64,000 nt of DNA from Raillietiella orientalis (lineage: Eukaryota), in the NCBI GenBank assembly GCA_036172245.1, contig JAYWIR010000040.1, forward strand, positions 1,364,001 to 1,428,000. The letters run 5' to 3'. Numbering within the stretch: position 1 is the first letter of the stretch; each line of letters begins with the position of its first letter. The notes under the pieces are model-generated. The model did not search any database. It saw only the letters and a program-made list of their open reading frames with translations, and was not told where the DNA came from. Of the stretch, positions 4,754 to 30,178 are shown in pieces. A program made the translations under genes and the position numbers.

Positions 4754-5672
4754 CTCAGGCCACACTGGCCCACATTTTGGAACCAACAAAATTCTCCATC
4801 CAGAGACTATCCCCAGGAGGCTCAGAACAAGGTATTTCGGGATATCAACAGATATCTTGCTGAGAGAAACAACCAATCTGCTCAACCTTATAAAGACTCG
4901 ATATAACACTGGGTTTCAGCAGCGTCACCCATTCTTTAGATCTTTGACATCGTAGCAAAAAGAAGAATCGATCTCAGTGGTCTCTTCCCGAAGTGAAGCA
5001 TCTAAGCTCTAAAAACCTCTTTATGAAGAATGGGAGTTCGAGAAGAATGGAATGCCACAGCAGTAACTATTTGAAAGAACTTCCTTTCCCATGGAATACT
5101 TGATCCGTAGGGAAGAAAAAAGGGAAGAGGAAAACAGGAGGAATCGTCGTCGAAAATCTCGAGTAGAGATGTGCCGAAGAAGCCATTTGGCTTCAGCGCA
5201 GAGCCCTCGAAACCGTACCCGATTCGCAACAGCCATTCCCGCAAGTGACCTACGCCGGACCACCAGGAACGCCGTTTCCTAGGTGGACCGATTCAGCTCC
5301 CCTCGACGGATGCAAGCGATATTCGATGTTTCTAAAGAGCCCTCAAGGAAAGTCGGATGGCTCGAATGTATTGTTGACCCTTGCTGAGCTGCTGAGCACT
5401 CTCAACCTTAGCGCTGCACATCTTCCAGCACTTGAGATGCGCCTTCCACGGAAGATGCGGACGCGTTCCGGTCATTCCTGACTGCTTGTCCTGTCCGGTG
5501 ACTGCTTGTCCTTGCTGAGAGGAACAACCAATCGGTTGTTCCCCTCAGCAAGGTATCTATTGATATCCCGAAATATCTGGAATCTTGGAGAGGATTTGTT
5601 CTGTGCCTCCTGGGGACAGTCTCTGGGAGGAGAATTTTGTTGGTTCCAAAATGTGGGCCAGTGATGCCTGAG
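4754..5672. repeat. Inverted duplicated pair (about 4754-4878 on +, about 5531-5672 on -), probably a coding remnant
   Basis: Near-identical sequence in opposite orientations. Both read LRxHWPTFWNQQNSPxRDxPQEAQNK...FRDINRYLAExNN; the second copy has an in-frame 18-nt insertion. Confidence 0.85.
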
Positions 5673-7071
5673 TTCACCGTTTTGTATCTTCGGGCGCTGC
5701 TCGGACAACCGCTGGCTCGCCGGGCCTCTTCGAAGGGACGTCGCTGCCTTTTCGTTGGTCTTCCGTCGTCGTCGTCGCTGCTGCCACCGTTGGCTCTACC
5801 GTCGCTCCTGAGTCAGCTCCAGGAAGCTTGGTCCTACCCTTCTTCTGTGCTCCGTTCCGCCTGCTCCTGTGGACGAGTTCGTCCTTTAGTGAGTCCGCCG
5901 AAATGTGTGTCATCCGTCAGCCGGGGGACGCTCGTCCCCCTGCCCCGGGCGACAAGACGCGAGTTCAGGAGGTGAGAGGCGGCGCATCCGACTTCGACTG
6001 CAGCCACAGGACGCTCGTCCCGGGCGAAAAGACACCGAAAACTAGGAGCAGGTCTTCTCGAGTGGATGCCGCGTTCCCAGGAGTCGATGGAACTCTTCCG
6101 CTCAAATAGCCCCGAGTCAGAGGCAGCTTTTTACACCCGCCCACGCAAAGGACCCATAGAATTGAGGTGGCACGAATGGAGCGGACAGAATTCACCGTTC
6201 GAAAGCAAAGATACCCACGGGGGTCCAGGAATTCCTGCCTTGGAGCTTCGCGCATGGAAAATTTGGTCCAACGAGACTTGGACTGTCTGGCTCTGCGAGC
6301 AGTTCCTGACCACGGCCATGCCATTCACCATCGACCGTCGCAGAAGTCTTTCCGCTCTTGCGGGTTCCGGACCGGCGCTTCTCTTCGCGGAGAGCGGCTT
6401 GCCCGAGTTACTCGCGAAACTTTGGTTCTCGGGGTGCCAACGCAGCGGACTGGCGAGGAGCGAAGAGCCGAACTCTCTGGCGGCGGAGAGCCGTTTGCAT
6501 TCGGCGGAATCGAAAGCGGCCTCCGTACTGACTCGAGTCAGGAGTCAGGATCTCGGAACGGACGGGGCATCCTCCTCGATCCTGCTTCGCTCCTCGGCAT
6601 CGGCACCCGTTAGGTAGAGGGAATTCCGGTCTTCTCTCCAGGTTGCTCCAACCCGCGAACCATCTTTCGTCTTCCATGGCTAGAAGAACTGCGTAGAAGT
6701 TTTAGGAAGCAGCAGCGCGAGCTTCGCATTCGTTCGTCTTGCAAGGAGATCCTTTGCACGGTGAAGGAACACGTGCTGCTCCAGGAGCATCCTCACCTAT
6801 GAAAAGGATAAAACAAACCATAGGAAAACCGTGGGGTGCGTCGTGCAACTGCTTGAAAGAAAGTGGAAAATCACTGTGCGGATCGCTCTGTCTCCACTCT
6901 TCCGCTTCTCTTCCGTTTTGAGGGCTTTTGCTCGACCTCTGTCTCTGAAGAAGCGTCTAGAAGGAGACAGGAGTTCTCCGAGGAGGACGATGGACTTTGT
7001 TCCTTTGAGAGGTCAGGGTTAGATGCCTTTTAACTGTTGAGGTGTACGGTCACTAACGCTGCTGATTTCAG

Positions 7072-7218
7072 ATGAAGATAAGCGTCTGCGTCTGCGCGCT
7101 GATCTCTGATGTCAGCTGCCTGCCGACGGAGGTCTTCGCTCAACCTGCATTTCTCTCCGAGGTTCCGGAGAGCCCGACGAAACAGTACCGGTTCTTCCCC
7201 CCGCCGCACTATGGCTGA
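7072..7218 (+). CDS. Duplicated signal-peptide exon of the P1 gene; a 48-aa secreted peptide precursor or a pseudo-exon
   Basis: Branch point cactaac (7051) and acceptor tttcag (7071), then MKISVCVCALISDVSCLPTEVFAQPAFLSEVPESPTKQYRFFPPPHYG*. Clear DNA paralogy with 9235-9319, but the gtaagt donor is absent. Confidence 0.5.
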   Translation: MKISVCVCALISDVSCLPTEVFAQPAFLSEVPESPTKQYRFFPPPHYG

Positions 7219-8642: not shown

Positions 8643-10448
8643 ATGGCGATGATCGAGGTAAGGTAGGGAGGGTGGGGTGGAGGGGGAGAGCTTCTCTCTC
8701 CCTCTCGGATCCAGGGAGGAGGCGCGCAAACGGTGAGGAGGCTCGCCTCTCGGAGATGAAGAGGGAGTCATCCCACCTCTCGTCTCCCCCTTCGGCGGTG
8801 GATTTGCACGCGCCTGCTCTGTGAACGCCCGCGCAGCGGAAACGAACGGGTGGAGATGCGCGGCTGCGCCGTCCTTCCCCCTCCGTTGTCCCCCCGTCTT
8901 CTTTTCGTCTCGTCCTTCCTCCTCCCTCGTCTCCACACCCCAGAGACCTCTCTCGAGGGACACGTCCCATGCGTGCGCGCGAGGCCTCTTTCCGTCACAA
9001 CGGGAAACAGGAGGAAGGGACTCTCGAACGTGAGCGACTTACCTTGCAGGGCCTCCGAGAAGGGGGAAATGGATCCGCGTGTGAGGGAAGAACCCGGGAG
9101 AAGAGGGTCCTCCATCGGGGGGGCTGAGCAGCCGCCTGCCTGGTGGTCCACCTCTGGACCTCCATGGGGGACGGGTGAGGGGGCACCATTCCGTGACCCA
9201 TGAGGTCACCGCTCACCCCCGCTGTTGGTTTCAGTTGAGGATAGCCGTCTGCGTCTGTGCGCTGATCTCGGGAGTCAACTGCCTGCCGACGGAGACCCCC
9301 ACCAGCATTCCCGGAGACCGTAAGTTGGCGCAAGGCTGACGCTGCAGCGGAGGAGGATCAGGAGCCGGCCGGATGGGATTTCCCGGGACGGCGGCAGGAC
9401 GCGAGGTGGAGTCAAACGCCCGAGTCCGGGAACCGCTGCGCTAGACCGGAAGCATCCGGGACACGGAGGGAAAGGAGCGCACGGCAGTTTTTGAACTCAA
9501 GGGGTTCTCCCCTCTCACCACGGGCCCGATTTGCAGCCACAGGGACGACGGCGACGACCGGAGCTCTGGATGAGACTCCCACAGACAGCAGCACAGTCTT
9601 CGAGACGACGGTCGGCGGCAGTCCCCAGAACGAGGAAGGTAGCGACGCGGATGATGCCGACACGCGGTTCTTCATTCATCGTGAGTACCGGGGGCAAAGG
9701 AGGATGGCGGGGCTGGGGGTGGCGTGGGGAAGGATGGGAAGAGGTCGTTGGATCCTGGAGGGGATGGTCAGCAGAGTCAGAGGGCAATGTCTTGCTCCTC
9801 TTCTTCCCTTCCATCGCCCGCGGGAGGGGGGGGCTCTCTCTGCAGTCGACGGTTTGGAGGGCGCAAATTGCAAGGGATCCAAGGGGTTAGCAACTTCTCT
9901 TCTCTCCAGGGCATGGGCAGCGCTTCCGCAGAGAGGTCGCTTTCTTGTCTCGTCTCCGAAGGGCAGAGTGCTCGGCCGCCACCGGAGATGGCTCGCTGCT
10001 CCCGTCGCGCGGAGGGGGCGCGGAGAAAGGAGACAGGAGAGGAGGAAGAAGCCAAAGGATGGAGGAGGGGGTTCAGTAGGAACAGGGAGAAGGGCCAAAA
10101 AGTGGGCTCCCTCCTCCTTTAGGGAAGTCTCTGCGGAGTCGGGGTCTCGATGGTCATCGCCCCGCGCGGACCGAGGGCGCTTTGTTTGACCCGGGGATGC
10201 GCTCGCACCGGCTTCTAAGGCGCGCTAGTGCGCTCATGCGCTCCAACCGGTTGCTTCTCGTTTCAGTCCAGCCGTGTCCGCCGGGCTCGCTGGTGTTCAT
10301 CTCGTGCAGGACCTACTCCACGTGCATGACCACCGGGTTTCCCGGAGAGAAGAGGTCCTGCCCCATCGGGAACAGAGTGGTGGCGGTCCCCATGGGCAAC
10401 AACATGGTTGGCCCTTCCTGCGTGCAGGACTTCAGCTGCTGGCTGTGA
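8643..10448 (+). CDS. P1: secreted prepropeptide with a six-Cys (CBM14/peritrophin-A-like) C-terminal domain, about 141 aa
   Basis: Exons 8643-8657 (MAMIE|gtaagg; first exon tentative, alternatives are ATG 8625 or 9069-9080), 9235-9319 (LRIAVCVCALISGVNCLP..., signal peptide), 9537-9680 (Thr/acidic spacer ending DADDADTRFFIH|gtgagt), 10267-10448 (QPCPPGSLVFISCRTYSTCMTTGFPGEKRSCPIGNRVVAVPMGNNMVGPSCVQDFSCWL*). Intron phases 0,1,1 give an open frame. Confidence 0.85.
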
Positions 10449-13113
10449 ACCCACGCGGCGGCGGAGGCACTCCGCAAGGAATGCCGCGGGATCGCCAGGT
10501 TTAGGAAGACGGAGAGAAAAAAAAAAACTGCCGACCTCTTGGAGCGGGAAGCTTCCTTGCGGAGAGCTGCTCTCCGATAGAGTCGCCTCCGCTCCTCCTT
10601 CAGCTCAGTAAAGTTTCACCTCGGATGACTAGAGCAGCGTGCGGGTTTGATTGGTTCCTTCCAAGCCTTCCGCACTGGGAGGCCCGGCGGGACTCCTCCT
10701 CGCAGGGCCGGCAGCGCCCCGGACGGGGAAGAAGGGGAAGGATATTCCCCTTGCGGGCGAGCGCGCGACCCTTTTCCCAGGAGGAGCCGCGTGCGCAGGC
10801 GCGTACCACGTTGTCACCAGGAAAGGCAGTGACCGGACGAAACCGTGGCCTGGGGCTTGGAGGGCCTCCGTGAGCCATCGGGTACGGCACCCGACGGCGG
10901 GAAGAGGAAACCGCGCGGAAGCCGGCGCTCTCGCTCGTGAGACCCAAGCGGCGGCGGGCGCGGCAAGGCCGCGAGCGAGGGGAAGCTGAGGCAGAGCAAG
11001 GAATCCTCATCCTCTCCATCCCCGTATCCCGAGGTCCTGGTGACCTCTGTGGGGTCGCCCGCCCTCGAAGTCCCCATCAGCAGGTGACGATGACCCGCGC
11101 CGTCCTTCCCCTGAAATGGGAATTATCTGGGAGCACACTCGCCATAGAGGAGGAGGGCATCCCGGGTCCAATTTACCTCGCTCGACGTCCCTTTTCCACT
11201 CCCCTTCCCCTCCCTCCTACCCCAAGTGCGTCTGAAAACGACCCTGGATTGTCTCGCCAACCTCCCACCCCCACACCGCACGCGCCAGCTCCCCAGGAGG
11301 GGAGCTGCGGTCCTTGGTAGAGTCAGCCCTCACCCACATGAGCCAGAAATGCCTCCCTCCTGTTCGAAAGGGTCTCGTCCCGCGGGAGGTCAGTGAGGTG
11401 GGAGGTGCTGCAGGACGCACATCGAGGGACCAGGAAAGGCGGCTGCATAGCCAGTGGGGCGTACTGGAAGCGTCCAGCGCCACAACGCCAGCCCGGGTCC
11501 AGATGCCTTCTCCTCCCATGCAGCGTTTCCGCCGCTTCTCCCTGCCACCCCCCGCGACCGAAGCCTCGGGCGTTGGCGCGGAGGTGATCGCGTCTCCCTT
11601 TCCCCCCAAGGGATCGACTCCGTCGTGACCTCGAGCTGACGCGAGGCCTCCGAGAAAAAAGCGTGCGCTCGTCACCCCTCGCTTGAACCATCACACTCGC
11701 CTCCTTTGCTTCGCGGCGCCGCCCTTGCTGGGGGCGCCGGAGGGCATCCCTAAGATCGAAACTCCTTCGAGTCGTAGTGGCGGTTGGTCTTCCCTTTTCC
11801 CATGCGACCGACCAGAAGCAGCTCTCGCTCCTACAAGGGAGTCCTCCATCCCATAGTGAGTCGACCACCCCCACATGATCTCGGAGCGACCTGAGGATCT
11901 CCAGAGCGACATAAACCCCTCGGAAGGGAAGAATAGACCCTCAGAGCCACAAAAGCGCCATCAAGATTTTTCCGGAATTCCTCCCACTCCCAGCTACCCC
12001 TTCCTTCTCGTCCTCCTCCTCTTTTCAGCGCCCTTCCTGTTACTCCGAGATCCTCCCCAGAATCTCTTGAGAGGCATCCGGCCATTCACCTGCTCCGCTC
12101 CCTCAGCCCGCAATGGTTCGTGGTAAGGAGGAGGGGAGAGATCGGGGAGGGAGGATGCTTTGCCCTCCTGCGTTTCCAGGGAGCGGAGGCTCCTGGATCC
12201 TTCTCTGACCCTCTTCCCCCTTTCTACTTGGCTCCACCCCTTCCTTCCTAGAATCGGAGAAACCGGAAGCCAGCGTTCGCGACGGCGATCTTGCGTCGTC
12301 CTCCGGAACGACTCGTCGCGACTCCCGGAGGCTCCTGACACGTCGGAAGGGTGGAGAGCTTCCCACGGAGCCGAATGCTCAGTACCCCGCTGCCGCTCAA
12401 GCGAACTGAGGTCACTTCCGGATGTCCAACTATTGGCAGTCTCCCGGACCTCTCCTGGGATCATCGTGGACCGGCCAGCCGCTCCGACCCGCGAAGCAAA
12501 GGCAGAGCGGGATGCAGCGCCACCATCCCGGCGAATCCGCAAACGAAGTGGTGCCGGACGGACCGCCATTTGATGACCGTGCCGCTCCGCGACCTCCCGC
12601 TGACCACCACCCACCAGCCACTCGCCTTCCCGCGCCACGGAAAGAACGTTCGGGAAGAGGAGGGTTCATGGACCTCCGCATCCCCTTCCTCGCAACCACG
12701 GATCGGCGTTCGCAGCGCAAGTCCTCGCGCCCACTGCCTCTGAAGCGAACGGCTGCTGCTGCCCGGGGAGACGTCGGGATGGCGGTGGCAGCCGCCGGCA
12801 CCATTCTTCTCCTTCGCCTTCTCCTGCGCGTCCCTCCTCCCTCCCCCTTGCGCCCTCCTCTCCCCCAGAATGGAGACAACTCGCACACAGTTGATTCCCA
12901 GGGCGGCAGTTTTTCTTTCTTTTCGATTGTTTCCTGGGAGACGGGACGGTCTCGACAGGATGTTCCTCTCCTGGGACCGGGGTGTCTTCCACTCAGCGAT
13001 GAGGCAGTCGGGACACTCCTGGACGAAGACACCCTGAAGCTGGAGAAGGGCGCGGGAAGGGGAGTAAAGGGGCGTGACCTCACCTACCTGGGAGCGTGGG
13101 GTGGCGTGCACGG

Positions 13114-14998
13114 TCAGAAAAAGCAGGTCGGATTCACCTGGCAGATCCATTTGCCCACATCCATGTAGAGGAAGCTCTGCCCCACGGGGCAGAACTGCTT
13201 GGGACCCCACACGCCCCACGGCAGGCAGACTTTGAAAAGTCTGCAGCCCTTCTGCAGCACCTGGCCGGGCAGACAGAAGGCGACTGCGAAGAAGGGATGG
13301 GAAGGAGGTCAGCCGGTGTGGCGAGCGAGCGCATTCCACCGCGGGCGCGCTGAGGGCGGCTTGGGTGCGCATGTCCGCCCAGCGTGCCGCGCACCACGCC
13401 AGCAGCGGTGCGCCTTCGCACCGACGCGCACGTGCCGCGCGCGATTCCGTGTCTCGCGGGGTCATCGCGCGAAATGACTGGCGTGTCCACGTGTACACGG
13501 ACAGTGAGCGCTCGGCCCTCGGGCGTGTACAGAGATGCCTAATCGCATGCGTATACTCGAGCGGCTCCTCGGACATTCCGCGTTTTCGCTCGCGCGCGCA
13601 CACCCGCCGTAGAGGCGGGTCATCCTGCGTGCTCGTTGACACGTAGCCGCGTGTACGCACCAGCGCTTGTGCACGCGATCACCGGAGTGTATTCACTTTT
13701 CAATTTCGGCACAGTGTACGACCAAGACATGTACGTGTACAGAAATTGGGACATCCAGGTGTCGTAAGGTGCTGCTGGAATCCAGAGCTAATTCACGAGT
13801 ACGGATCAATGTACATCGGTATACGCATCCGTGTTCACGCATACATGTGCTCCCAGGACACCCACCCATCAGTGCACGCCCCGCTGAGCTCACCCACCTC
13901 CTCGCGCGACACGCTCGTGTCAGATTCGAGGGGTGCGGCATGCACACCGGTGTCTGCATACGTCTACCCGCGCGCTCGGAAGCTGCCCGCACTGCCGGAG
14001 TCGAGTCGGTACATGCGGTAGACCCCCGAGACCTCTGCGTCGTCCCGGGTACCTCGTCGGACGGCGGTCGACTCCGTGTACGCACCGGCGCGTAGGCACA
14101 GCGAGGCGCGGAGCCCTGGACGGAACACGCCTCAGGGGGTGAGCACTCACATCCCCACAGGAAACGGGTGTCCACCTCGCCGGCGTCATCTTCTTCGTCT
14201 CCCCACTCCTCTTCGGTGTCGTCGAAGATGACCGCTGGCGCGTCGGAACCGAGCAGTCCCGGCAGGCCTTGAGCCTCCTTGAAGCGGCCTGCGTTCAGAG
14301 GGACATTGTCCAGCGACCTGTTGACCAGTTCCGCCCACAGGGTCAAGTTCAGCGTGCGATGCAGCCCTGAAGTGAGCCAGGACCGTCAAGACTCGGACTG
14401 GGTCCTCCCACTTCCACCTTACTCAAGGCGCTTTGGGCGGGGATGTCTGCAGGCGACGTTCTTCGGAGGGAGTCAGGAAGTAGCAGGCCGAAGCTCGTCG
14501 CCAAGGCGATAACGAAAGCGGTGGTGACGAAGAGGACGACCGTCGGCTGCACCGAAGTGGCGCGCTGGAGCAAAGCTCGAGTTCAGGGTTCCCACACCTC
14601 CGGAAGCGAAGAGCGCCTCAGCGAGGTGCTCATGAGAGACGGTTCGCCGCCACCTTTCCAGAGGATGGTGGAGGCTGTGGATATATTCTCGAAGACAAGG
14701 AAACAGCATTCGACTCGAAAGCTGCATCAGAAGACGAGTGCTCGCGCTGCCGTCGCATCGTTTCCGCACCCCTTCACATCCTGGCAACGGTCGGAGAGAG
14801 GCGCTCGTCCGACGATGGACGAGGGACGTGCGAACGAATCTCCCCCTGCAGCTAGCCTCTCCCTCACCAGTCCCTCCTAGGAAGTTTCCACCGGCACGCA
14901 GGCCTCCTGGTACGCCTGCCTCTCTTCCTCCTCCTCCTCCTCCTCGCACTTTCACCTACACAACGGGCGACGTCGCATACGCACCCGGTTGTTGCCAT
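13114..14998 (-). CDS. P2: secreted prepropeptide with a six-Cys domain, about 175-180 aa
   Basis: Exons 14998-14981 (MATTGC, tentative), 14546 or 14564 to 14423 (PTVVLFVTTAFVIALATSFGLLLP...|gtaagg), 14366-14151 (acidic spacer ending EEDDAGEVDTRFLWG|gtgagt), 13283-13114 (AFCLPGQVLQKGCRLFKVCLPWGVWGPKQFCPVGQSFLYMDVGKWICQVNPTCFF*; branch gctgac, pyrimidine tract, cgcag acceptor). The last exon is not in the ORF track. Confidence 0.85.
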
Positions 14999-17900
14999 CC
15001 CGACCGACAAGGGGAGGCCATTTCAGACTCGCTGCGAGCGGCGTCCCCCAGTTCCACTCAACCGAATGACCGCGCCGCTAGAGTGCTCTGCCAGAGGAGC
15101 CCCAGCAGCGCGTCTCCTGAGCTCACGCGTTCCTGAGAGTCTGCGCCCGACCAACGGAAGACCTCTCTTCGTCGTGCAGGCGCGGAATACGCGATCTTCG
15201 GAGCAGGAAGGACCGGTGGCTCGCTTTTGGTTCGGTCCAGCTCCGTCTCCGGGCGCCCTGCCGATGGCGTTACCCTTCGCATGCGACCAGCCGGTGGTCC
15301 TGCTTCCGTTTCGTCCACACCAGGAACCCACCTTTCCTCCATCTTGTTCCTCGAGAAATCGTCGTTCCTCTGCTTCCTGAATCTCCCTTGGCGTTTCCCG
15401 TGCCAAAGATGCTCGCGGCTTGGCAAAAACGAGGAGCTTGGGAAGAGGAATGATGGACCGGGCTGCTTGGTGCCTCATGCGGCAAAAATAAACCAACCAC
15501 ACAGATCAAAAAAAAAAAATGGGTTTTCCGTTTTGCCGTGGCCGAGAAATCGGCAGAATCTTCTGGAAGGACCGAATGCCCACGGGCGCCGGCGTGCATC
15601 CAGGTTCGTGTCCCGAACCGCGAGAGAGAAAACGCGCCCAAGAGTCTTCGAGGGAATCGATCGACCAGCGTCGCACGCCGTCTCCGGCAACGGAGCGAAA
15701 CAGTATCTCTTCCCGAACACGCATTTTGTTTTTTTCTTTTCAGAGGGCAGCAGAAGACCTCACGAGATCGTTGCTACTGGCCCAGGGTGGTGGAAATCCT
15801 GTCGAGTCTTCTATTTGCTGCCTTCCTTCTAGCTTCTTCCTTTCATTCTTTCGGTTTTCTCTTGCTTTTGATTCGCTAACCGTTCGCTCGGGAACCGTTC
15901 GCTCCCCTTCCATGAGTGCACCGGGGCGACTCGACGCCACAGAAGGTCATGAGGCTCTTTGAACAAGGTCACGCCACTCAAGGTTGCGTGTGACTGTCAG
16001 GGGAACCCCTAAGGGAACCGCTCCTTATTTACTCCTCTTCCAGCACTCCGGAAGGGAGGCCGACTCCGTGACCCGCAAACTGGTGGGGAAACCCGGAGGG
16101 AACTGGCCTGCTCCACGATTCCTGGAAGGACCCCGGAGGGGGATACTTCCAGTTCCACGGGGAGCATCCCGATTCCGACGCGTGCGAGCGCCGGACTCGA
16201 ACAACCAGCGTCCTGAAGGGAGACTCGAAATCCACGACGACTCGCCCCGTTCCCGGCGTCGTTCCTTCGCGAGGGGGAAAGGGAGGGGGGAAGTTTCGAA
16301 CCTGTGGCGCCAGGTGCCGCGCGCGGCAGCCGCAGCCACACACTGCCGCCAACACGCCACTTTAGGGACATTGCAGAATGAGGTTCATTCCCCTTCCTGC
16401 ATGCGGGTCCTCTCCGCGAAACCCATTGGAGTCTGAGAGATGCAACCGCACCATAACCAACATCTTCCCTCTTCCTCTCTCCAGGATCCAGTCCGAAGGC
16501 GCGCGAGAGAGCATTCGGTCCATCTGGATCCGTGTCTCGCTCTGATCCTCTGGCGTCCTGCTCGACCTGGATGGCTCCCTCCCTTTTCTTCCTTTCTTTC
16601 TGGCCCGCTTGCCTCTTCGGAAACTTTTTCGGCCGCGTCCCCTTTTCCGTTGCTTCGGAAGCAGCTGCCGCCCTCGCTGCTGAGGCTCCGAGAGGACCGC
16701 CGAACCTGAGAGCCGGTCTGCGACCCCACCGGCGTCTCCACGTCTCCAGTCTGCCTCCGAGACGGTTTCGTCCGATCGGAACCCGCACGCGGTCCAATGC
16801 GTGGGAGGAAGAGGCGGACTTGCTGGGCGAAACCCTCCAAGGGAGAGAGCACCGCTGCTTCGCGCGCTTCCGCATGCGGCGCGTCGGAAGAACCGCTGGC
16901 CTCTTCCGCTTCTCGAGTCACGTTTCGGAGCCTCGGGAAGCGGCCAGCTGCTTTCTGGGGCTCCGGTCTGCCGCCGGCGCCTCTGCCGGCACCGAAACCC
17001 TCGCTATGGAGGTCGTCTCGGAGAGCCGCGAAAGTGGACCGCCTCGCACCGGAAGAGCCGGAGAGCTCCAGCCGGTCGGAAGCCACAAGCAGTCCTCGTC
17101 TCTTCCCCTCCCTCCTTCTCCCCAGCGCGTCTCAGGCATTCTCAGCTTGCCTTCTCGGGCGAAGACAAACGTTGGAGACGCGCGTCGTCGTGGAGACAAC
17201 TCTTTGCTCCACATGGACGGAGAAAGTGGAAAGCCGAGAGGAAGGGGGCGCGCCGCGGAGACATCCCTACCGAAAAGGCGTCGTGGCGTGGAGAAAGGGA
17301 GAGGGGAGAGGGAGGCGGGACGCGGGAAGAGTCTGCAGCGTCACAACCGTCAGACGCGGACTCTCCGGCGGAGACCTGCGTTCGCCTCGAGAGGTGCAGG
17401 AGCGCCGGGCGCGCTCTTCGACCTCCAAATGCCCCGAATTCAGTCCTCCTCTCCCCTCTCTCTTCCCACGGTGGCGACGGCGGCACCAATGGAAGGGGGA
17501 GATGGACTGCCCCGTAGTGCTCGAGGGGTGGCCTTCCCGAATCGTTTGCAAACCCTAGGAGTGGACTCACCCAGACTGGCAGCCGGCTGGAGGTGCACAT
17601 CATCTTCTACAGTCGGAAGGGGTCGCGGAAGTATCTCGATGTGCACTGCTCGATGTGTACTGGGCTCCAGCAACCTTTTCCCTCCGGCTGGCAGCTGAGG
17701 AGGCGAAGAACGGAAAAAGAAGGGGGTAAAAAAAAGTCCGGCAAAAAACGGGGAGAGGAAGAGAAGTGCTGAGGGAGGAGAACGCGAAGGAGGAGAGGAG
17801 AGGTGAGACGGCTGAGGCTCACTTTCTGCTTCCTTTCGTCTTTCTTCTTCTTCTCCTCCTTCTCCTCCCCCCCATAATTTTTGTTCGGTAGCTCCCTTAG

Positions 17901-18674
17901 CGTGGACGGGAAAAGGGGGGGATCATGAGCGCACGAACGGTGGCTGGCGAATCATCGGGAGATCTGTGGCAAATCTTCGAATCCTCCGTCCCCATTCCTT
18001 CTCCTTCCCCTCCGAGGGAGGGTGGATCCATTCGCTCGCTTCCTCATCCCGCTCTCTCTCTCCCCCTCGTCCTCGGGTTGCCTCCCTCCCTTTCCCTCTC
18101 TCCCCTTCGTTCTCGCGTTGCCTCCCTCCCGCTCGGTGCCAGCAGAGGCAGAACGCTAGGTTCTGACGTTTCAAGGGCCTCCCTAGGTCGCCCTCCGCCG
18201 ATGCAGCCCCGGGCAATGGGATCGTGGAAGGAATGCGGGCAGGAGGCTGCACCTCCTCGCCCTCTCTCCGAACAGCAAAGGTGATCGTGGCAACGGTGGT
18301 GTCCTGCGGGTGAGGTCGGCAGAGCAGCGGTGATGGCAGGGGGCATTGGAGGCGGCGCGGCGAAAGCACCCTGCGGCCGCAGCGATGCCGATCTCCTTGG
18401 AGGCGGAGGCGGATGCGGCAGGGTGGAAATGGGGGAAGGGAGGACTGGGGAAACCGCAGCTACCCTCCTCCTCCCCCTCTTCCTCCTCTCCCTCTCTCTC
18501 CGACCCAGGGCGCACGATGCTCCTTGCGCAAGCGCGCTCGCTCCGGGCTTGCGGACCGGCTGACCGCGACTCGCAGCTGCGGACGGGGCGGACGCAAGCG
18601 GCTCATTTAGCGTGCGCCGCGGCAGTGACGGGACCCGATCGCCTTCCGCCGAGTCTCCCTCTTTTTCCCCGAGG

Positions 18675-20257
18675 ATGACCCGCCACGGGGCCCCCGGACC
18701 GACGGCGTTGCAGGTAAGGCGGCGGCGACACCGCGACCCCCCCCCCCCCCCCAGCTCTCGTTCGGCAGAAGCTCCCTCGGGGTAACGCGCGGTCGTCGAG
18801 GACGGCTGCTCGAAGTACGCACGAGGGGAGAGGCTCGCTCGAGAGGAATGAGCGGGAGGGAGCTCTGGAGCGGTTCTTCCAACCATCCTCCGCACGCGTT
18901 CCCACCTTCCGGGGAAGGGAAAGGAGGGACGCGGCGGGTCGTCCGCTGTCCCCGCCCCGCTTCTCCCGCGCTCCTCCAGAGCAGGCCGCGCGCCCGGAAG
19001 TCCCTCGTTTCCATAGGGAGCTCCCTCGGCGCCGAAGGAACGGGAAAACGGCGGCTGGAGAGGGTCCCCGCTGCGAGTGTCCGGGACTTGCTCTTGGTCT
19101 TGAGTCTCCGAGCTCTGACTGAGGGAGAGGAAGAGAGGGACGATGGAGACCCAGGAGCCGAGGACCGGGAAGATGACAGAATCGAGTAGGAAAAGCTGCA
19201 GTTTCGCGCTAGGGAACTACCTGACGCGGGTTCATGACAAGGAAGGACAAGTGCAGGAAGGTGGGAAACTGAAGGAGAGCCGTTGTCTTGGAGATGGGCG
19301 GAATACCTTGCTGGCCGTCGCGGCGAGGGTCAAGAGCCTCACAGGCAGAACGCTCTGCACGCTTTCCTTCCTCCCCATTGGACTCTCCCTTGCGCGGCAG
19401 CCGGGCTCGACTGGTTCGGGGCAGAGGCAGGAAGGACCCTACCGTCTCTCATCCTGTCCTCTTTCAGATGCTGCTGCTAGCGGTGATTTGCTGGATGCTC
19501 GCTGTTCCCCGAGGAGAGTCCCTGAAAGGTGGGTCAGTTCTTCCCTCATCTTCCTTCCCCCGCGCCTCCCGAAGTTCCGTGACCTCCCCCTGCTCATTTC
19601 TGAGGGGCCAGAGGACGGCGCCACCTTCTTCCGATCGCGTGGTCCGTTTCGTCAGCTGGAGGGGGACCCACCCGTCCATGGCATCTCGGCGGGGGGGCGA
19701 GGTCCCTCCCAATTAACTGCCTCTTCCGGGAATCCCGCGCTTTTTCCTCGTGAGGAGAGGGAGGAGCTCACCCCCTGCATCTTTCAGGTCTCCAGGATAC
19801 CTTCCGACATCCTCCAGGCATTCAGACGCTCTCCCGGAGTCTCCAGAGGTTGACCCGCGCCCTGAGGGTGCCCAGGTTCATCTACGGTGAGTAGCTCGGG
19901 AAGCCTTCCGGGGAGCAGGTAGGCCTCAGCTACCTCCCCTCCTCCCTTTTCCTCCGTGACCCACAAGCTGAAGGAGGTAGCTCGGCTGAGAGCCTCTGAA
20001 AAAGGGGGGGGGATGGATCTGCTTTACGGCGGATAGTAGGCGCTCAAGGCCACCATGTGACCCTTCATCGCGGCTCCTCCTCTCTTTCAGTGTTTTGCAA
20101 CACGACTGAGTTTGCGGTTCTCGGGTGCCGCACCTACAAGAGGTGTCTACCGAACAACGTGTGGGGATACCCAGAGTACTGCCCCGTCCGCCGAAGGGTG
20201 ATTATCCTCCCGGGCAACGCCACCTGCGTGAAAGATCCCACCTGCATCTTCTTCTGA
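18675..20257 (+). CDS. P3: secreted prepropeptide with a six-Cys domain, about 121 aa
   Basis: Exons 18675-18713 (MTRHGAPGPTALQ|gtaagg), 19468-19528 (MLLLAVICWMLAVPRGESLK), 19788-19886 (ending LRVPRFIY|gtgagt), 20091-20257 (FCNTTEFAVLGCRTYKRCLPNNVWGYPEYCPVRRRVIILPGNATCVKDPTCIFF*). All three acceptors are tttcag; phases 0,1,1; ATTAAA at about 20315. Confidence 0.88.
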
Positions 20258-21131
20258 CCCCTTCCGGGATTCACCATCTTCCCCCGAGGGACGACCCCTT
20301 TCTCTGTCCAGGAGATTAAAAAAAAAATGCTTGTTCCTGGCTCTCTTCCCAGAGGTCTCAACGAGACGAATTCCTCCTCGCGGTCTCCGGGGTTCATCCA
20401 CCTGCCTGTAGGGCTGTTCCCGAAAGGGAACGCTGAGGCCTCCCCCTGGAAACGGGCTTCCAGGAAGAGGAGGAGGAGCGCGGCGGCCCTCTTCTCGCTG
20501 ACCTTTCCCCTTCCTCTGGGCATGGCGAGGAGGAGCACGCGTGGGGAGGCGGTGCGCCTTCTAAGTTCGGAAGGAGCTGGCAGCAACCCGCACCGCGGAT
20601 GGACAGTCGTCCCACGGGAGAGGCGGAGAGTCCTGCGAGATTACCGAAGGTCCCTCCTGATCTTGGAAAATGAGAACGTCCCAGTAGGAGGGTCCCCGCT
20701 CTCCCCTAAGGGTTGCTGACGCGGGAGGCCGGAGAAGGAAGATGAGGTGGGCGCGCAGGGTGGACGCTCCTCCCTCTACATCAGACCTCCCGCTCGTTTC
20801 TCCTCCCGGGAAGCAGGGTCCACTTTTCTGCTACGCCTCCAGGTGGGCGCGTCCGCGGCCTGAAAGCGACGGAGCTCCTGCAGGTCCTCCAGAGACGCGG
20901 GAGGTTTATTCTTCTCCTCCAGGACCGCAAGAACACCGGAAGCGTCTCTCAGGACCTTCTAGGGGACGCAGGGTCATTCCCTCCACCTGTCTTCTCTGTC
21001 TTTTATTTAACATTTCCTTTCTCCCTTCTCCCCTTCCTCTTCTTTCCTCCGCCCTCTTTGTCCTCTCATCCCGCTGGCACCCAGCAGCGCCATTCGGCAA
21101 TGAGGACAGCCCTCGAGGGACCGCGACGGGC

Positions 21132-22576
21132 TCAGATGAAGCAGGTGTCGTCCTCCTCGCACCGGACGCTCGAGGTGCTGTCGTTGGCGATCTGCAGCAC
21201 TGGACGGAATCCCGTGGGGCACTCCTGGAAGAATCCAATCTTCCTGCCCCGGCAGACGGCGTACTTCCTGCAGGTGTACCGGATGAGTATTCTATCGGAG
21301 CAGGGGAAACCTTCGAGACCAGAAGAGAGAGGAGTTGTCGTCGTGAACGGCGAGCGAAGGGGACGAAGAGGGGGCGGGGTGGCAGCACGCCCCGCCTTCC
21401 CGGGGAGGAGGCACTGGAGTGCACGGTCCTTCCAGCATGCCATGTGCATTTCTGCCCGCTGATCCCTTTCGGAAAGGGATTAGGACGGAGCGGACCTTCG
21501 GACCCAGGACTCAGCACTCAGCCGGCAAGGACAGAGGCTTCCCCCTCAGCGACAAGAAGAAATCCCAAAGAGAATCGCTCCCGGGAAGAAATCGCTCTCT
21601 CGTCTTCATGTCATCAAGGTAGGAGGAGGAGGAAGAAGAAAAGGAGAGTGTCCAGCGACCGAGGGAGGGAGATATCACACCACTTCTTCGCCCTCATCAC
21701 CACACTTTTCTCAGCTTCCCTATTCTTATTCCTCCTTTCGCTGCCTCTCTTCCTCCTCCTACTCGTGGTCGCCGTGGTCTTCTCCACAATTTCCTCGCCC
21801 GCATCTTCACTCTGGCTCTTCCATCTTGTCCTCCTCCTCGCCGTCTCCTCCTCCACCGACGTCGTGCCGCCAAGGGATACCAGCTTCCACCGTTCATCAG
21901 GCCATGCCTGCAAGGGCTGTCTGCAGGTGTTGGTGGGTGGAGCCGTGAGAAAACTCCGCCCTCTTGCTCCCCACTCCCCGAAGTCTGGCTTTTCGCGCCT
22001 TCTTCGGGCAAGCCTCCGAAGGGATAGGGTCCACTCCCTCCCCCTTCCCCCCTTCTGCCCTCCTCCTCCTTCCTAATTCTCCGCCGCCACAGGCGACGCT
22101 TCCGACCTGGCCGGTTGCCGCCTTCCTTGCTCGGTCACTCATGGTCTCCCCGACAGCCGTCCCTAGGGAAGTGCCTAGCTCCAAAGGAAGGAAGAGGATC
22201 TCCACTCCTTCCTTGAACCCCCCCGTCGGAAAGTTGCGCCCAAAGGCAGCCGACCACCTTCCTTTCCCACTCGTCCTCCAACAGCAGCAGGAGCAGGAGC
22301 AGGAAGGGAAGAGGAGGAGGAAGAAAGAAGGGAGAGGAAGGAAAAGGAGGAGGAGGATTCCTATGATAGCCTACGCGCACTCGCGCGCTCGGAGGGTGCA
22401 GCAAGGTTGGGTGGGAAGGGATGTCAACGGCCCGAGGAACAATCGAAAAGACGGTCACCTGGTAGATACAGCCTACGGTAGGTCATTTCACCGCTCGCGC
22501 CCTCGCTGCTGCTGGAGACCGCGACGAGCACCAGCGCCACGGCGGTGGCGGCAGGAAGGGCAGCAACTGGATGCAT
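21132..22576 (-). CDS. P4: secreted prepropeptide with a six-Cys domain, about 98 aa
   Basis: Exon 22576-22459 (MHPVAALPAATAVALVLVAVSSSSEGASGEMTYRRLYLP, phase-1 donor gtgacc) and exon 21310-21132 (FPCSDRILIRYTCRKYAVCRGRKIGFFQECPTGFRPVLQIANDSTSSVRCEEDDTCFI*). AATAAA on - at 21002-21007. Possible upstream exon 23764-23669 (donor gtaaga). The Cys exon is well supported; upstream exons are less certain. Confidence 0.72.
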
Positions 22577-29300: not shown

Positions 29301-29653
29301 ATAGAATATGTATTAGGATCCTCGAAAACTGCAGTTTCCTTCCAAATAATGGCATGCTTCAAAAGCAATTTTTGTAATATTGCATCCGTTGGATTTTTCC
29401 AAGATTTGTTGTGCAATTAATGTACACACAGGTTCAGAGTAATCAAACAATTGGAACTATAAACAATCACACAAACATACTTTTTTTCTCCTGCAGCGAA
29501 ACTAGTTGCAAATACGTTGTTGATGTTACAATATCATGTTTGTAGATGAATTTAAGTTGATCATTGGATTGAAAAATCTTTACTGGAAAATATGAACAAC
29601 TAATGATGCTTTTGCACTTTTCAGGGTAAGTGATTATGAGATACAGAAATACC

Positions 29654-30178
29654 ATGAGTACCTGCCGCCTCTTGCCTAACATACTTATTACTGGAACTCC
29701 TGGAGTGGGCAAATCCTGCTTGTGTTCAGAATTAGAAAGTCAATCTGGCCTACAGTGGCTTTGTGTGGCTAGCATTTTAGAAGAGCACCAATTATATTTA
29801 GGCTATGATGAAGAATACCAGTGTCATGAATTAGATGAAGATGCCCTGCTGGATGAACTAAAGGACCGTGTTCTCCAAGGAGGAGTGATTCTGGATTATC
29901 ATGGCTGTGATTTGTTTCCCCGCTCATGGTTTGATGTAGTGTTTGTTTTACGTACAGACAATACACTTTTATATGATCGTTTATTAGCCCGTGGTTATTC
30001 AGGACGCAAACTTAAAGAAAACATTGAGTGTGAAATATTTCAAACTCTTTTGGAAGAAGCTAGAGAGGCATTCTCTTTAGATAATGTACATGAGTTGCCA
30101 AGCAATAACCCTGAAGATCTGGAAAATAATGTGGAAAAAATTTTGCACTGGATAAATGAGTGGAAGATGGAACATTAA
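29654..30178 (+). CDS. AK6: Adenylate kinase isoenzyme 6 (AK6/CINAP/Fap7); uninterrupted CDS
   Basis: LLPNILITGTPGVGKS P-loop, hhhDYHG motif (VILDYHGCDLFP), LRTDNTLLYDRL..RGYS..KL.ENIECEIF. Start assumed at accATG 29654. Confidence 0.96.
   Translation: MSTCRLLPNILITGTPGVGKSCLCSELESQSGLQWLCVASILEEHQLYLGYDEEYQCHELDEDALLDELKDRVLQGGVILDYHGCDLFPRSWFDVVFVLRTDNTLLYDRLLARGYSGRKLKENIECEIFQTLLEEAREAFSLDNVHELPSNNPEDLENNVEKILHWINEWKMEH

Follow-up and report, generated by a model that had tools for sequence, protein, structure and literature searches.

A divergent family of four small six-cysteine genes in a GC-rich island of Raillietiella orientalis, probably an orphan branch of the peritrophin-A fold

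Introduction

What is encoded by a cluster of small spliced genes that no annotation by sequence similarity recognises? We addressed this question for a stretch of 64,000 nucleotides from Raillietiella orientalis (contig JAYWIR010000040.1, positions 1,364,001 to 1,428,000, forward strand; hereafter the window), in which a previous sequence-only reading had described four hidden genes for secreted six-cysteine prepropeptides. These genes are named P1 to P4 here. Our analysis supports the view that P1 to P4 form one divergent six-cysteine family of four real-looking, separately oriented small genes (+, -, +, -), and thereby agrees with the earlier description of a single family with signal-like N-termini. 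The fold predicted for the domain suggests that the family is probably a lineage-specific, sequence-orphan branch of single-domain secreted proteins with the peritrophin-A fold.

Results and discussion

A shared six-cysteine domain

The family is defined by four terminal exons. Each was found exactly where the sequence-only reading had placed it, is preceded by an AG acceptor with a pyrimidine tract, is entered in phase 1 (translated two bases in), encodes a peptide of 54-59 residues and is closed by TGA (Table 1). The peptides follow the pattern C-x9-C-x5-C-x10/11-C-x14-19-C-x5-C, with successive spacings of 9/5/11/19/5 in P1, 9/5/11/15/5 in P2, 9/5/11/14/5 in P3 and 9/5/10/19/5 in P4. The sixth cysteine (the cysteines are numbered C1 to C6) is separated from the stop codon by two or three hydrophobic residues, which are WL, FF, IFF or FI across the family; cysteine pattern and tail thus agree with the earlier description. 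Pairwise identity among the four domains is 27-40%. Nine columns of their alignment are invariant, namely the six cysteines, an arginine after C2, one glycine and the proline after C4.

We built a profile from three of the copies and searched for the fourth among the 1489 six-frame open reading frames (ORFs) of the window with at least 25 residues. The left-out copy was recovered at E values of 4.1e-10 (P1), 4.1e-11 (P2), 3.5e-11 (P3) and 1.6e-3 (P4), and the best unrelated ORF in these searches had an E value of at least 0.075. The four copies are thus mutually related beyond chance. In searches with single sequences, P1, P2 and P3 were interlinked at 1e-5 to 3e-10, and P4 was linked to P1 only (approximately 7e-4). 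P4 is the weakest member, since it scored lowest in both kinds of search; all invariant columns are nevertheless kept in P4. No fifth six-cysteine domain was detected in the 64-kb window, whether or not stop codons were read through, so that the family comprises exactly four copies there.

Nonsynonymous and synonymous divergence among the copies (dN 0.67-1.04, dS 0.86-1.63) are both near saturation, which indicates that the copies are old. It also makes the ratio dN/dS uninformative, and the rapid diversification that had been proposed for this family finds no support in these rates. Intact reading frames and the preserved cysteines speak for constraint.

Gene structure

Gene models were built by eye and script, with GT-AG junctions predicted from the sequence (Table 1). 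All nine modelled introns have GT-AG borders and good pyrimidine tracts, and the genes comprise 98 to about 150 codons in two to four exons. Frames run uninterrupted from an ATG in P1 (141 aa), P3 (121 aa) and P4 (98 aa); the frame of P2 spans 149 codons without a start codon. The first exon of P3 may be dispensable, because exon 2 opens with an ATG of its own. A series of intron phases 0,1,1 had been reported for P1 to P3. We found it in P1 and P3, but P2, whose hydrophobic exon is devoid of an ATG, yields ?,1,1, and P4 has a single phase-1 intron. In all four genes, the last intron is in phase 1 and lies two or three codons before C1. This conservation of position and phase points to common descent of the whole genes and not of the cysteine motif alone.

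Within the first 26 modelled residues, each of the four models contains a hydrophobic 12-residue window (Kyte-Doolittle means 2.73-2.93), and the hydrophobic cores are followed by small residues that, judged by eye, fit a signal-peptidase site. Of the upstream signal-peptide exons proposed previously, the hydrophobic segment is present in the models of all four genes, and in three of the four (P1, P3 and P4, but not P2) it is part of a model that begins with ATG.

For P2, no start codon was identified. Two candidate first exons lie upstream: the first and nearer (14633-14598) would be separated from the hydrophobic exon by a mere 33 nt of intron, and the second (15478-15332) would add 49 residues ahead of the hydrophobic segment; we favour neither. 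A signal-like exon that opens at a splice acceptor and has no in-frame ATG raises the question of trans-splicing or of unrecognised mini-exons. Directly upstream of the ATG at 15478, the minus strand is AT-rich over a short distance (15480-15560, including a run of T) within the otherwise GC-rich surroundings, and an AATAAA is located at 15487 on the opposite (+) strand. The patch may represent the promoter or first-exon region of P2, or else a plus-strand transcript that has escaped recognition may end here.

Between signal-like segment and domain, the linker differs from gene to gene. In P1 it is first Thr/Pro-rich and further on acidic; P2 has an acidic linker, P3 a basic one with an R-x-x-R, and P4 has almost none. 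Common to all four genes is an arginine followed by hydrophobic residues, positioned 6-8 residues before C1 and extending across the last intron.

These features bear on the processing that the term prepropeptide implies. The products could be processed bioactive peptides, cut after the conserved arginine (or at RxxR or RR in P3 and P4) to release a cationic antimicrobial peptide or toxin of about 55-60 residues, with the acidic linker as a neutralising propiece and the peritrophin-like scaffold as a mere frame. The domains are indeed mildly cationic (net charge +2 to +4, pI 8.3-8.9), acidic runs stand just upstream of the domain in P1 and P2, and the arginine before C1 is found in every gene, as part of R-x-x-R in P3 and of R-R in P4. 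However, the charge is modest, and the four genes have no dibasic or furin-type site in common, RxxR being confined to P3 and RR to P4. The 4-6 mostly hydrophobic residues that follow the conserved arginine would suit an extra strand better than a cleavage site. Moreover, no homology to a known antimicrobial peptide was found in Pfam, among 1.84 billion representative sequences or among PDB sequences. We therefore consider release of such peptides unlikely, and for the postulated processing step the single arginine is the only conserved candidate. We suspect that the arginine-hydrophobic motif instead adds a strand that packs on the hydrophobic C-terminal tail.

Table 1. Predicted exons of the four genes, candidate poly(A) signals, partial copy and neighbouring genes (positions in the window)
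Feature	Positions	Strand	Description
P1 exon 1	8643..8657	+	Modelled; ATG and 4 codons, phase-0 donor gtaagg
P1 exon 2	9235..9319	+	Hydrophobic signal-like segment (best 12-residue Kyte-Doolittle mean 2.73), start of Thr/Pro-rich linker; acceptor tttcag, donor gtaagt
P1 exon 3	9537..9680	+	Linker, Thr/Pro-rich then acidic; Arg-Phe-Phe motif at end
P1 terminal exon	10267..10448	+	Six-cysteine domain and TGA; GC3 0.90, 99.9th percentile
P2 signal-like exon	14423..14564	-	Hydrophobic; starts at splice acceptor, no in-frame ATG
P2 linker exon	14151..14288	-	Acidic run; Arg-Phe-Leu motif at end
P2 terminal exon	13114..13283	-	Six-cysteine domain and TGA; GC3 0.84, 99.9th percentile
P3 exon 1	18675..18713	+	ATG, 13 codons, phase-0 donor
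P3 exon 2	19468..19528	+	Signal-like hydrophobic segment (Kyte-Doolittle 2.93)
P3 exon 3	19788..19886	+	Basic linker; Arg-Phe-Ile motif at end
P3 terminal exon	20091..20257	+	Six-cysteine domain, two N-x-S/T sequons, TGA
P4 exon 1	22459..22576	-	ATG, signal-like segment, phase-1 donor
P4 terminal exon	21132..21310	-	Six-cysteine domain and TGA; GC3 0.86; most divergent member
Candidate poly(A) signal ATTAAA	20315..20320	+	58 nt past P3 stop
Candidate poly(A) signals, two A[AT]TAAA hexamers	20905..21007	-	125 and 222 nt past P4 stop
P0, partial paralogue	7038..7218	+	ORF 7072-7218, 48 codons, TGA 7216-7218
AK6 (adenylate kinase isoenzyme 6)	29630..30178	+	Apparently intronless; single ORF, covers 92-96% of database homologues
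DM13/DOMON-type gene	37.5-39.6 kb		In AT-rich flank
HERC4-type HECT ligase	45.3-46.5 kb	-	In AT-rich flank

Coding potential

All four genes lie in an island of 60-65% GC that extends over roughly 5.5-26 kb of the window. Long frames are common in GC-rich DNA, and P1 to P4 might accordingly be non-functional, that is, chance or decayed ORFs. The island is full of long meaningless frames: none of the 122 ORFs of at least 110 aa between 4000 and 27000 matched Pfam at E <= 0.001, LINE (long interspersed nuclear element) and other transposon families included. We compared the G+C content at the three codon positions (GC1, GC2 and GC3), with percentiles of GC3 excess taken against 4069 windows of 50 codons without a stop from the island. 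The terminal exons have a GC3 of 0.78-0.90, in contrast to 0.44-0.58 for GC1 and GC2, an excess that ranks at the 99.6-99.9th percentile. The strongest coding signals of the island are these four exons and their antisense shadows. Over the whole coding sequences, GC3 is 0.76-0.82, compared with an intron GC content of 0.60-0.65.

Transcript ends provide a further indication. Only four A[AT]TAAA hexamers occur between 6000 and 26000 on both strands together, and three of them follow the stop codons of P3 and P4, each on the strand of the gene concerned. No such hexamer was found within 1500 nt after P1, P2 or the partial copy P0 described below.

In favour of chance or decay one may also cite that no homologues of P1 to P4 were found in the databases searched, that the signal exon of P2 lacks a start codon, and that P0 is a sign that fragments of the family decay or become truncated. 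However, six cysteines and nine invariant columns have been kept in four intact frames despite near-saturated synonymous sites, the excess of GC3 is extreme, introns have kept their position and phase, the rare hexamers are correctly placed past two stops, and the P1 and P3 domains fold with confidence in the models described below. Taken together, these findings make non-functional ORFs a very improbable explanation.

Sequence similarity to known proteins

We searched for a known family to which the domains could belong. None of the four matched Pfam CBM_14 (PF01607), the peritrophin-A family, at E <= 10 (HMMER filters drop most hits above about 0.1), and accordingly none of the four reaches the PF01607 gathering score. 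The sole Pfam match of the four domains, to NoBody (E 0.27), is irrelevant. A profile search of PDB sequences with the family likewise yielded no match at E <= 10. With the four-sequence profile, one match was obtained among 1.84 billion representatives (E 5e-5). It is a tandem-repeat protein of 1149 aa without a matched stretch, and we regard it as spurious. An alignment search among longer proteins (E <= 10) gave 121 candidates, none of which scored. These searches are in line with the earlier statement that the family is not a recognised, named one; the relationship to PF01607 for which it had suggested scoring the domains did not show at the sequence level.

Two further searches were made with P2. 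A scan of metagenomes gave 138 pattern matches, from which four loci were examined; these had only the short pattern stretch in common with P2, the cysteine frame was absent, and the best profile E value among their ORFs was 0.0019, so that we attribute them to chance. In the ESM Atlas (all clusters), the best score was 0.77, for a bacterial or phage hypothetical protein, which provides no lead.

Structure prediction

Next to sequence, we considered structure. AlphaFold2 models were made of the P1 and P3 domains, with the four-sequence family alignment as input. The best P1 model has a predicted local distance difference test score (pLDDT) of 85.9, with two of the five models above 80; for P3 the value is 89.4 and all five models are at 87-89. 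Both domains are modelled with five strands, arranged alike.

The P3 and P1 models were compared with a library of 48,161 PDB representative chains. With P3, the matches of interest were domain IV of Fsx1 (PDB 7P4L; score 5.3; root-mean-square deviation [rmsd] 1.9 Å over 47 residues), EHEP (4.1; 2.5 Å over 45 residues), the mite allergens Der p 23 (3.7; 2.3 Å over 42 residues), Blo t 12 (3.2) and Der f 23 (2.7), two entries of the fungal effector Avr4 (3.1 each), the CBM14 domain of chitotriosidase (2.5) and tachycitin (2.4). With P1, these nine entries occupy ranks 1, 3, 4, 5, 6, 9, 12, 18 and 41. The ranks between are taken by unrelated small or beta proteins: Avr1/SIX4 (rank 2, rmsd 4.3-5.2 Å), EPC3, PAFC, pacifastin, ribosomal proteins and propeller blades. 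EHEP consists of three peritrophin-A domains, and the solved relatives given for it in the excerpted text of PMC10619976 are the chitotriosidase domain (PDB 5HBF), both Avr4 structures, Der p 23, tachycitin and Blo t 12. All relatives named in that excerpt were recovered within 39 of the 48,161 chains, although chitotriosidase is represented by a different entry (6SO0) in our library. The models therefore suggest a resemblance in fold to solved peritrophin-A members, at low scores.

Two other libraries gave results in the same direction. Among the best 27 rows of a Foldseek search of BFVD, nine are baculovirus chitin-binding type-2/Ac145/Ac150 proteins, and four more are VP91-type capsid proteins, which we take to carry a peritrophin-type domain. 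In a language-model search with P3 among named clusters, the top three were arthropod CBM_14 clusters (0.76-0.79), a result that by calibration is a lead only.

The same data can be read differently, as a fold or family that is new, rich in disulfides and without relationship to CBM14, in which case the likeness would reflect convergence of disulfide-stapled small beta hairpins and a bias of AlphaFold towards a common arrangement. Such a reading would account for the missing sequence-level signal to CBM_14, for the two or three of five loops that fall outside the printed consensus (see below) and for the other small cysteine-rich proteins in the structure lists, namely pacifastin, PAFC and SIX effectors. 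It is harder to reconcile with the finding that peritrophin-A proteins came out on top independently for two models and in three libraries (PDB representatives, BFVD and language-model clusters), and with the recovery of every solved relative named in the excerpt. We judge an unrelated fold to be distinctly unlikely, and retain the peritrophin-A fold as the probable one.

Comparison with peritrophin-A proteins

The likeness to PF01607 peritrophin-A proteins, such as insect peritrophins and CPAP1 cuticle proteins, extends beyond the modelled fold. Six cysteines are contained in about 50-55 residues, C2-x5-C3 and C3-x10/11-C4-Pro are present with an aromatic residue between C2 and C3, the context is secreted (as predicted here), and a phase-1 intron precedes the module. 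The main neighbours of the predicted beta fold are solved CBM14 structures. In contrast to peritrophin-A proteins, P1 to P4 end in a hydrophobic tail of two or three residues right after C6 and have the arginine-hydrophobic motif before C1, and orthologues were not found in any other organism in the databases searched.

Among single proteins, the layout of P1 resembles that of the mite group 23 allergens, with a signal, a Thr/Pro-rich stretch and a single C-terminal module; the sequence of Der p 23 is described as rich in Thr and Pro in the excerpt of PMC12609036. P2 to P4 lack such a stretch, and identity to Der p 23, Der f 23 and Blo t 12 in the structural alignment is only 12-17%. Avr4 is fungal and longer than the P1 to P4 domains. 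Tachycitin has extra cysteines. Domain IV of the archaeal Fusexin1 (Fsx1) is alike in fold only, since it is part of a large membrane fusogen, contains two disulfides and does not stand as a single domain in a secreted protein.

Several observations weigh against a peritrophin-A assignment. Besides the missing start codon of P2 and the outcome of the sequence searches (no PF01607 match, no PDB match and, for the family profile, one spurious match), they include the spacing of the cysteines. A paper on silkworm (PMC7379184) quotes CX15-17CX5-6CX9CX12CX6-7C for ChtBD2, and in a widened form, after Tetreau (2015), CX11-30CX5-6CX9-24CX12-17CX6-12C. All four domains have the six cysteines, and C2-C3 (5) and C3-C4 (10-11) are inside the quoted range, but the pattern as a whole does not fit. 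C1-C2 is 9 in all four domains, below 11-30. C5-C6 is 5 in all four, below the insect range of 6-12, although EHEP domains allow 5-9 according to the excerpt of PMC10619976. C4-C5 is inside 12-17 in two domains (14 and 15) and outside in the other two (19 each). The models, too, call for caution, as no more than four sequences underlie them and, for P1, three of the five are poor (49-54). Foldseek gave no match in PDB at E <= 0.001 (best SIX6, E 0.58; Avr4 at rank 19, E 2.0) and no significant match in BFVD (best E 0.74). Comparison with tachycitin and Avr4, proposed in the sequence-only reading, thus placed both among the structural neighbours at low scores but did not yield a significant Foldseek match. 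Finally, splicing, secretion and expression are predictions, and a peritrophin-A fold does not imply chitin binding, as the non-binders Der p 23 and EHEP illustrate (PMC10619976, in excerpt).

In view of these points, we liken the family to the peritrophin-A superfamily, from which it probably descends, and do not treat it as a demonstrated member of PF01607. On this reading, a well-known family has an offshoot here that had gone unrecognised, and P1 to P4 do not represent a new kind of peptide or molecule.

Possible function

Under the peritrophin-A assignment, the domain of approximately 55 residues would adopt the ChtBD2/CBM14 fold, which is a small antiparallel beta structure stabilised by three disulfides. 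These would connect C1-C3, C2-C6 and C4-C5, by analogy with the pairing in solved members given in the excerpt of PMC10619976. The family would be old and would have arisen by inverted and tandem duplication within the GC-rich island. Its products would be secreted co-translationally by means of the N-terminal signal, after which the C-terminal module would fold oxidatively and bind an extracellular ligand. The first candidate for this ligand would be chitin of the gut lining, the cuticle or fungal walls. For the splicing, secretion, disulfide pairing and ligand of this scheme, we rely on inference only.

Chitin binding cannot be read from the sequence, because the binding residues are not conserved among peritrophin-A proteins (neither EHEP nor Der p 23 binds chitin; PMC10619976, in excerpt). 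We adopt chitin binding, to which we give roughly even odds, as the first hypothesis and an antimicrobial or other ligand-binding role as its alternative. A more far-reaching scenario, which we consider doubtful, is that a taxon-restricted peritrophin-A branch, hidden from sequence methods, was recruited for immunity or the gut in the form of small cationic effectors similar in type to tachycitin, with anionic or mucin-like propieces. The short first loop and the hydrophobic tail would then form a new ligand- or membrane-binding surface, and recombination or biased gene conversion in the island would drive both the extreme GC3 and the divergence of the paralogues.

If the peritrophin-A assignment is true, annotation that relies on Pfam misses a whole branch of chitin-binding-fold proteins in this lineage, which only structure prediction reveals. 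Small single-domain members of this kind are of practical interest as components of gut lining or cuticle, as allergens (mite groups 12 and 23) and as immune peptides (tachycitin). No long-standing question hinges on the P1 to P4 family.

A partial fifth copy

A partial paralogue, P0, was detected 2.1 kb upstream of P1 exon 2 (Table 1). Over 94 nt, its first part (7038-7131) matches the end of P1 intron 1 (34 nt) and the beginning of exon 2 (60 nt) with 81% identity. The ORF has its ATG directly at the acceptor and encodes a start of signal-like character, an Arg-Phe-Phe motif similar to the one in P1 and a terminal glycine; no cysteine domain follows downstream in P0. A terminal glycine is a possible amidation signal. 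With a GC3 excess of 0.26, P0 is above the 99th percentile of the island windows. P0 is either a truncated relic or a gene for a short secreted peptide.

Genomic context

The island has a sharp edge at 26-27 kb, where GC content falls to 30-35% over a distance of about 1 kb, and the region 26500-53000 has 30-45% GC. In a sample of 25 long ORFs across the window, five matched Pfam, all of them in the AT-rich part, and no tRNA or Rfam matches were found. The AT-rich flank contains ordinary animal genes, situated 4-25 kb past the island edge: AK6, a HERC4-type HECT ligase and a DM13/DOMON-type gene, with GC3 of 0.33-0.40. AK6 is at best 61-62% identical to database proteins, the first named rows being horseshoe crabs and a bivalve. 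For the HERC4-type gene, most of the best named rows (ticks, insects and springtails) show 53-57% identity, and one snail row near the top has 42%. These two genes point to an animal, probably an arthropod or a near relative, whose own proteome is missing from the databases searched. Genes only 10-25 kb apart in this locus thus have opposite codon composition (GC3 about 0.8 in the island versus the low values of AK6 and HERC4), and the locus lends itself to the study of GC-rich islands as nurseries in which paralogues diverge.

Close to 54 kb, GC content rises for a second block, and it is again high at 60 kb; eight long ORFs there are without a Pfam match. At the AT-to-GC transition on the other side, inverted repeats were found at 4754-4877 and 5531-5672, comprising pairs of 77 nt (92% complementary) and 48 nt (88%) about 650-765 nt apart. 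These pairs at the island edge may be a small foldback element or one resembling a MITE (miniature inverted-repeat transposable element).

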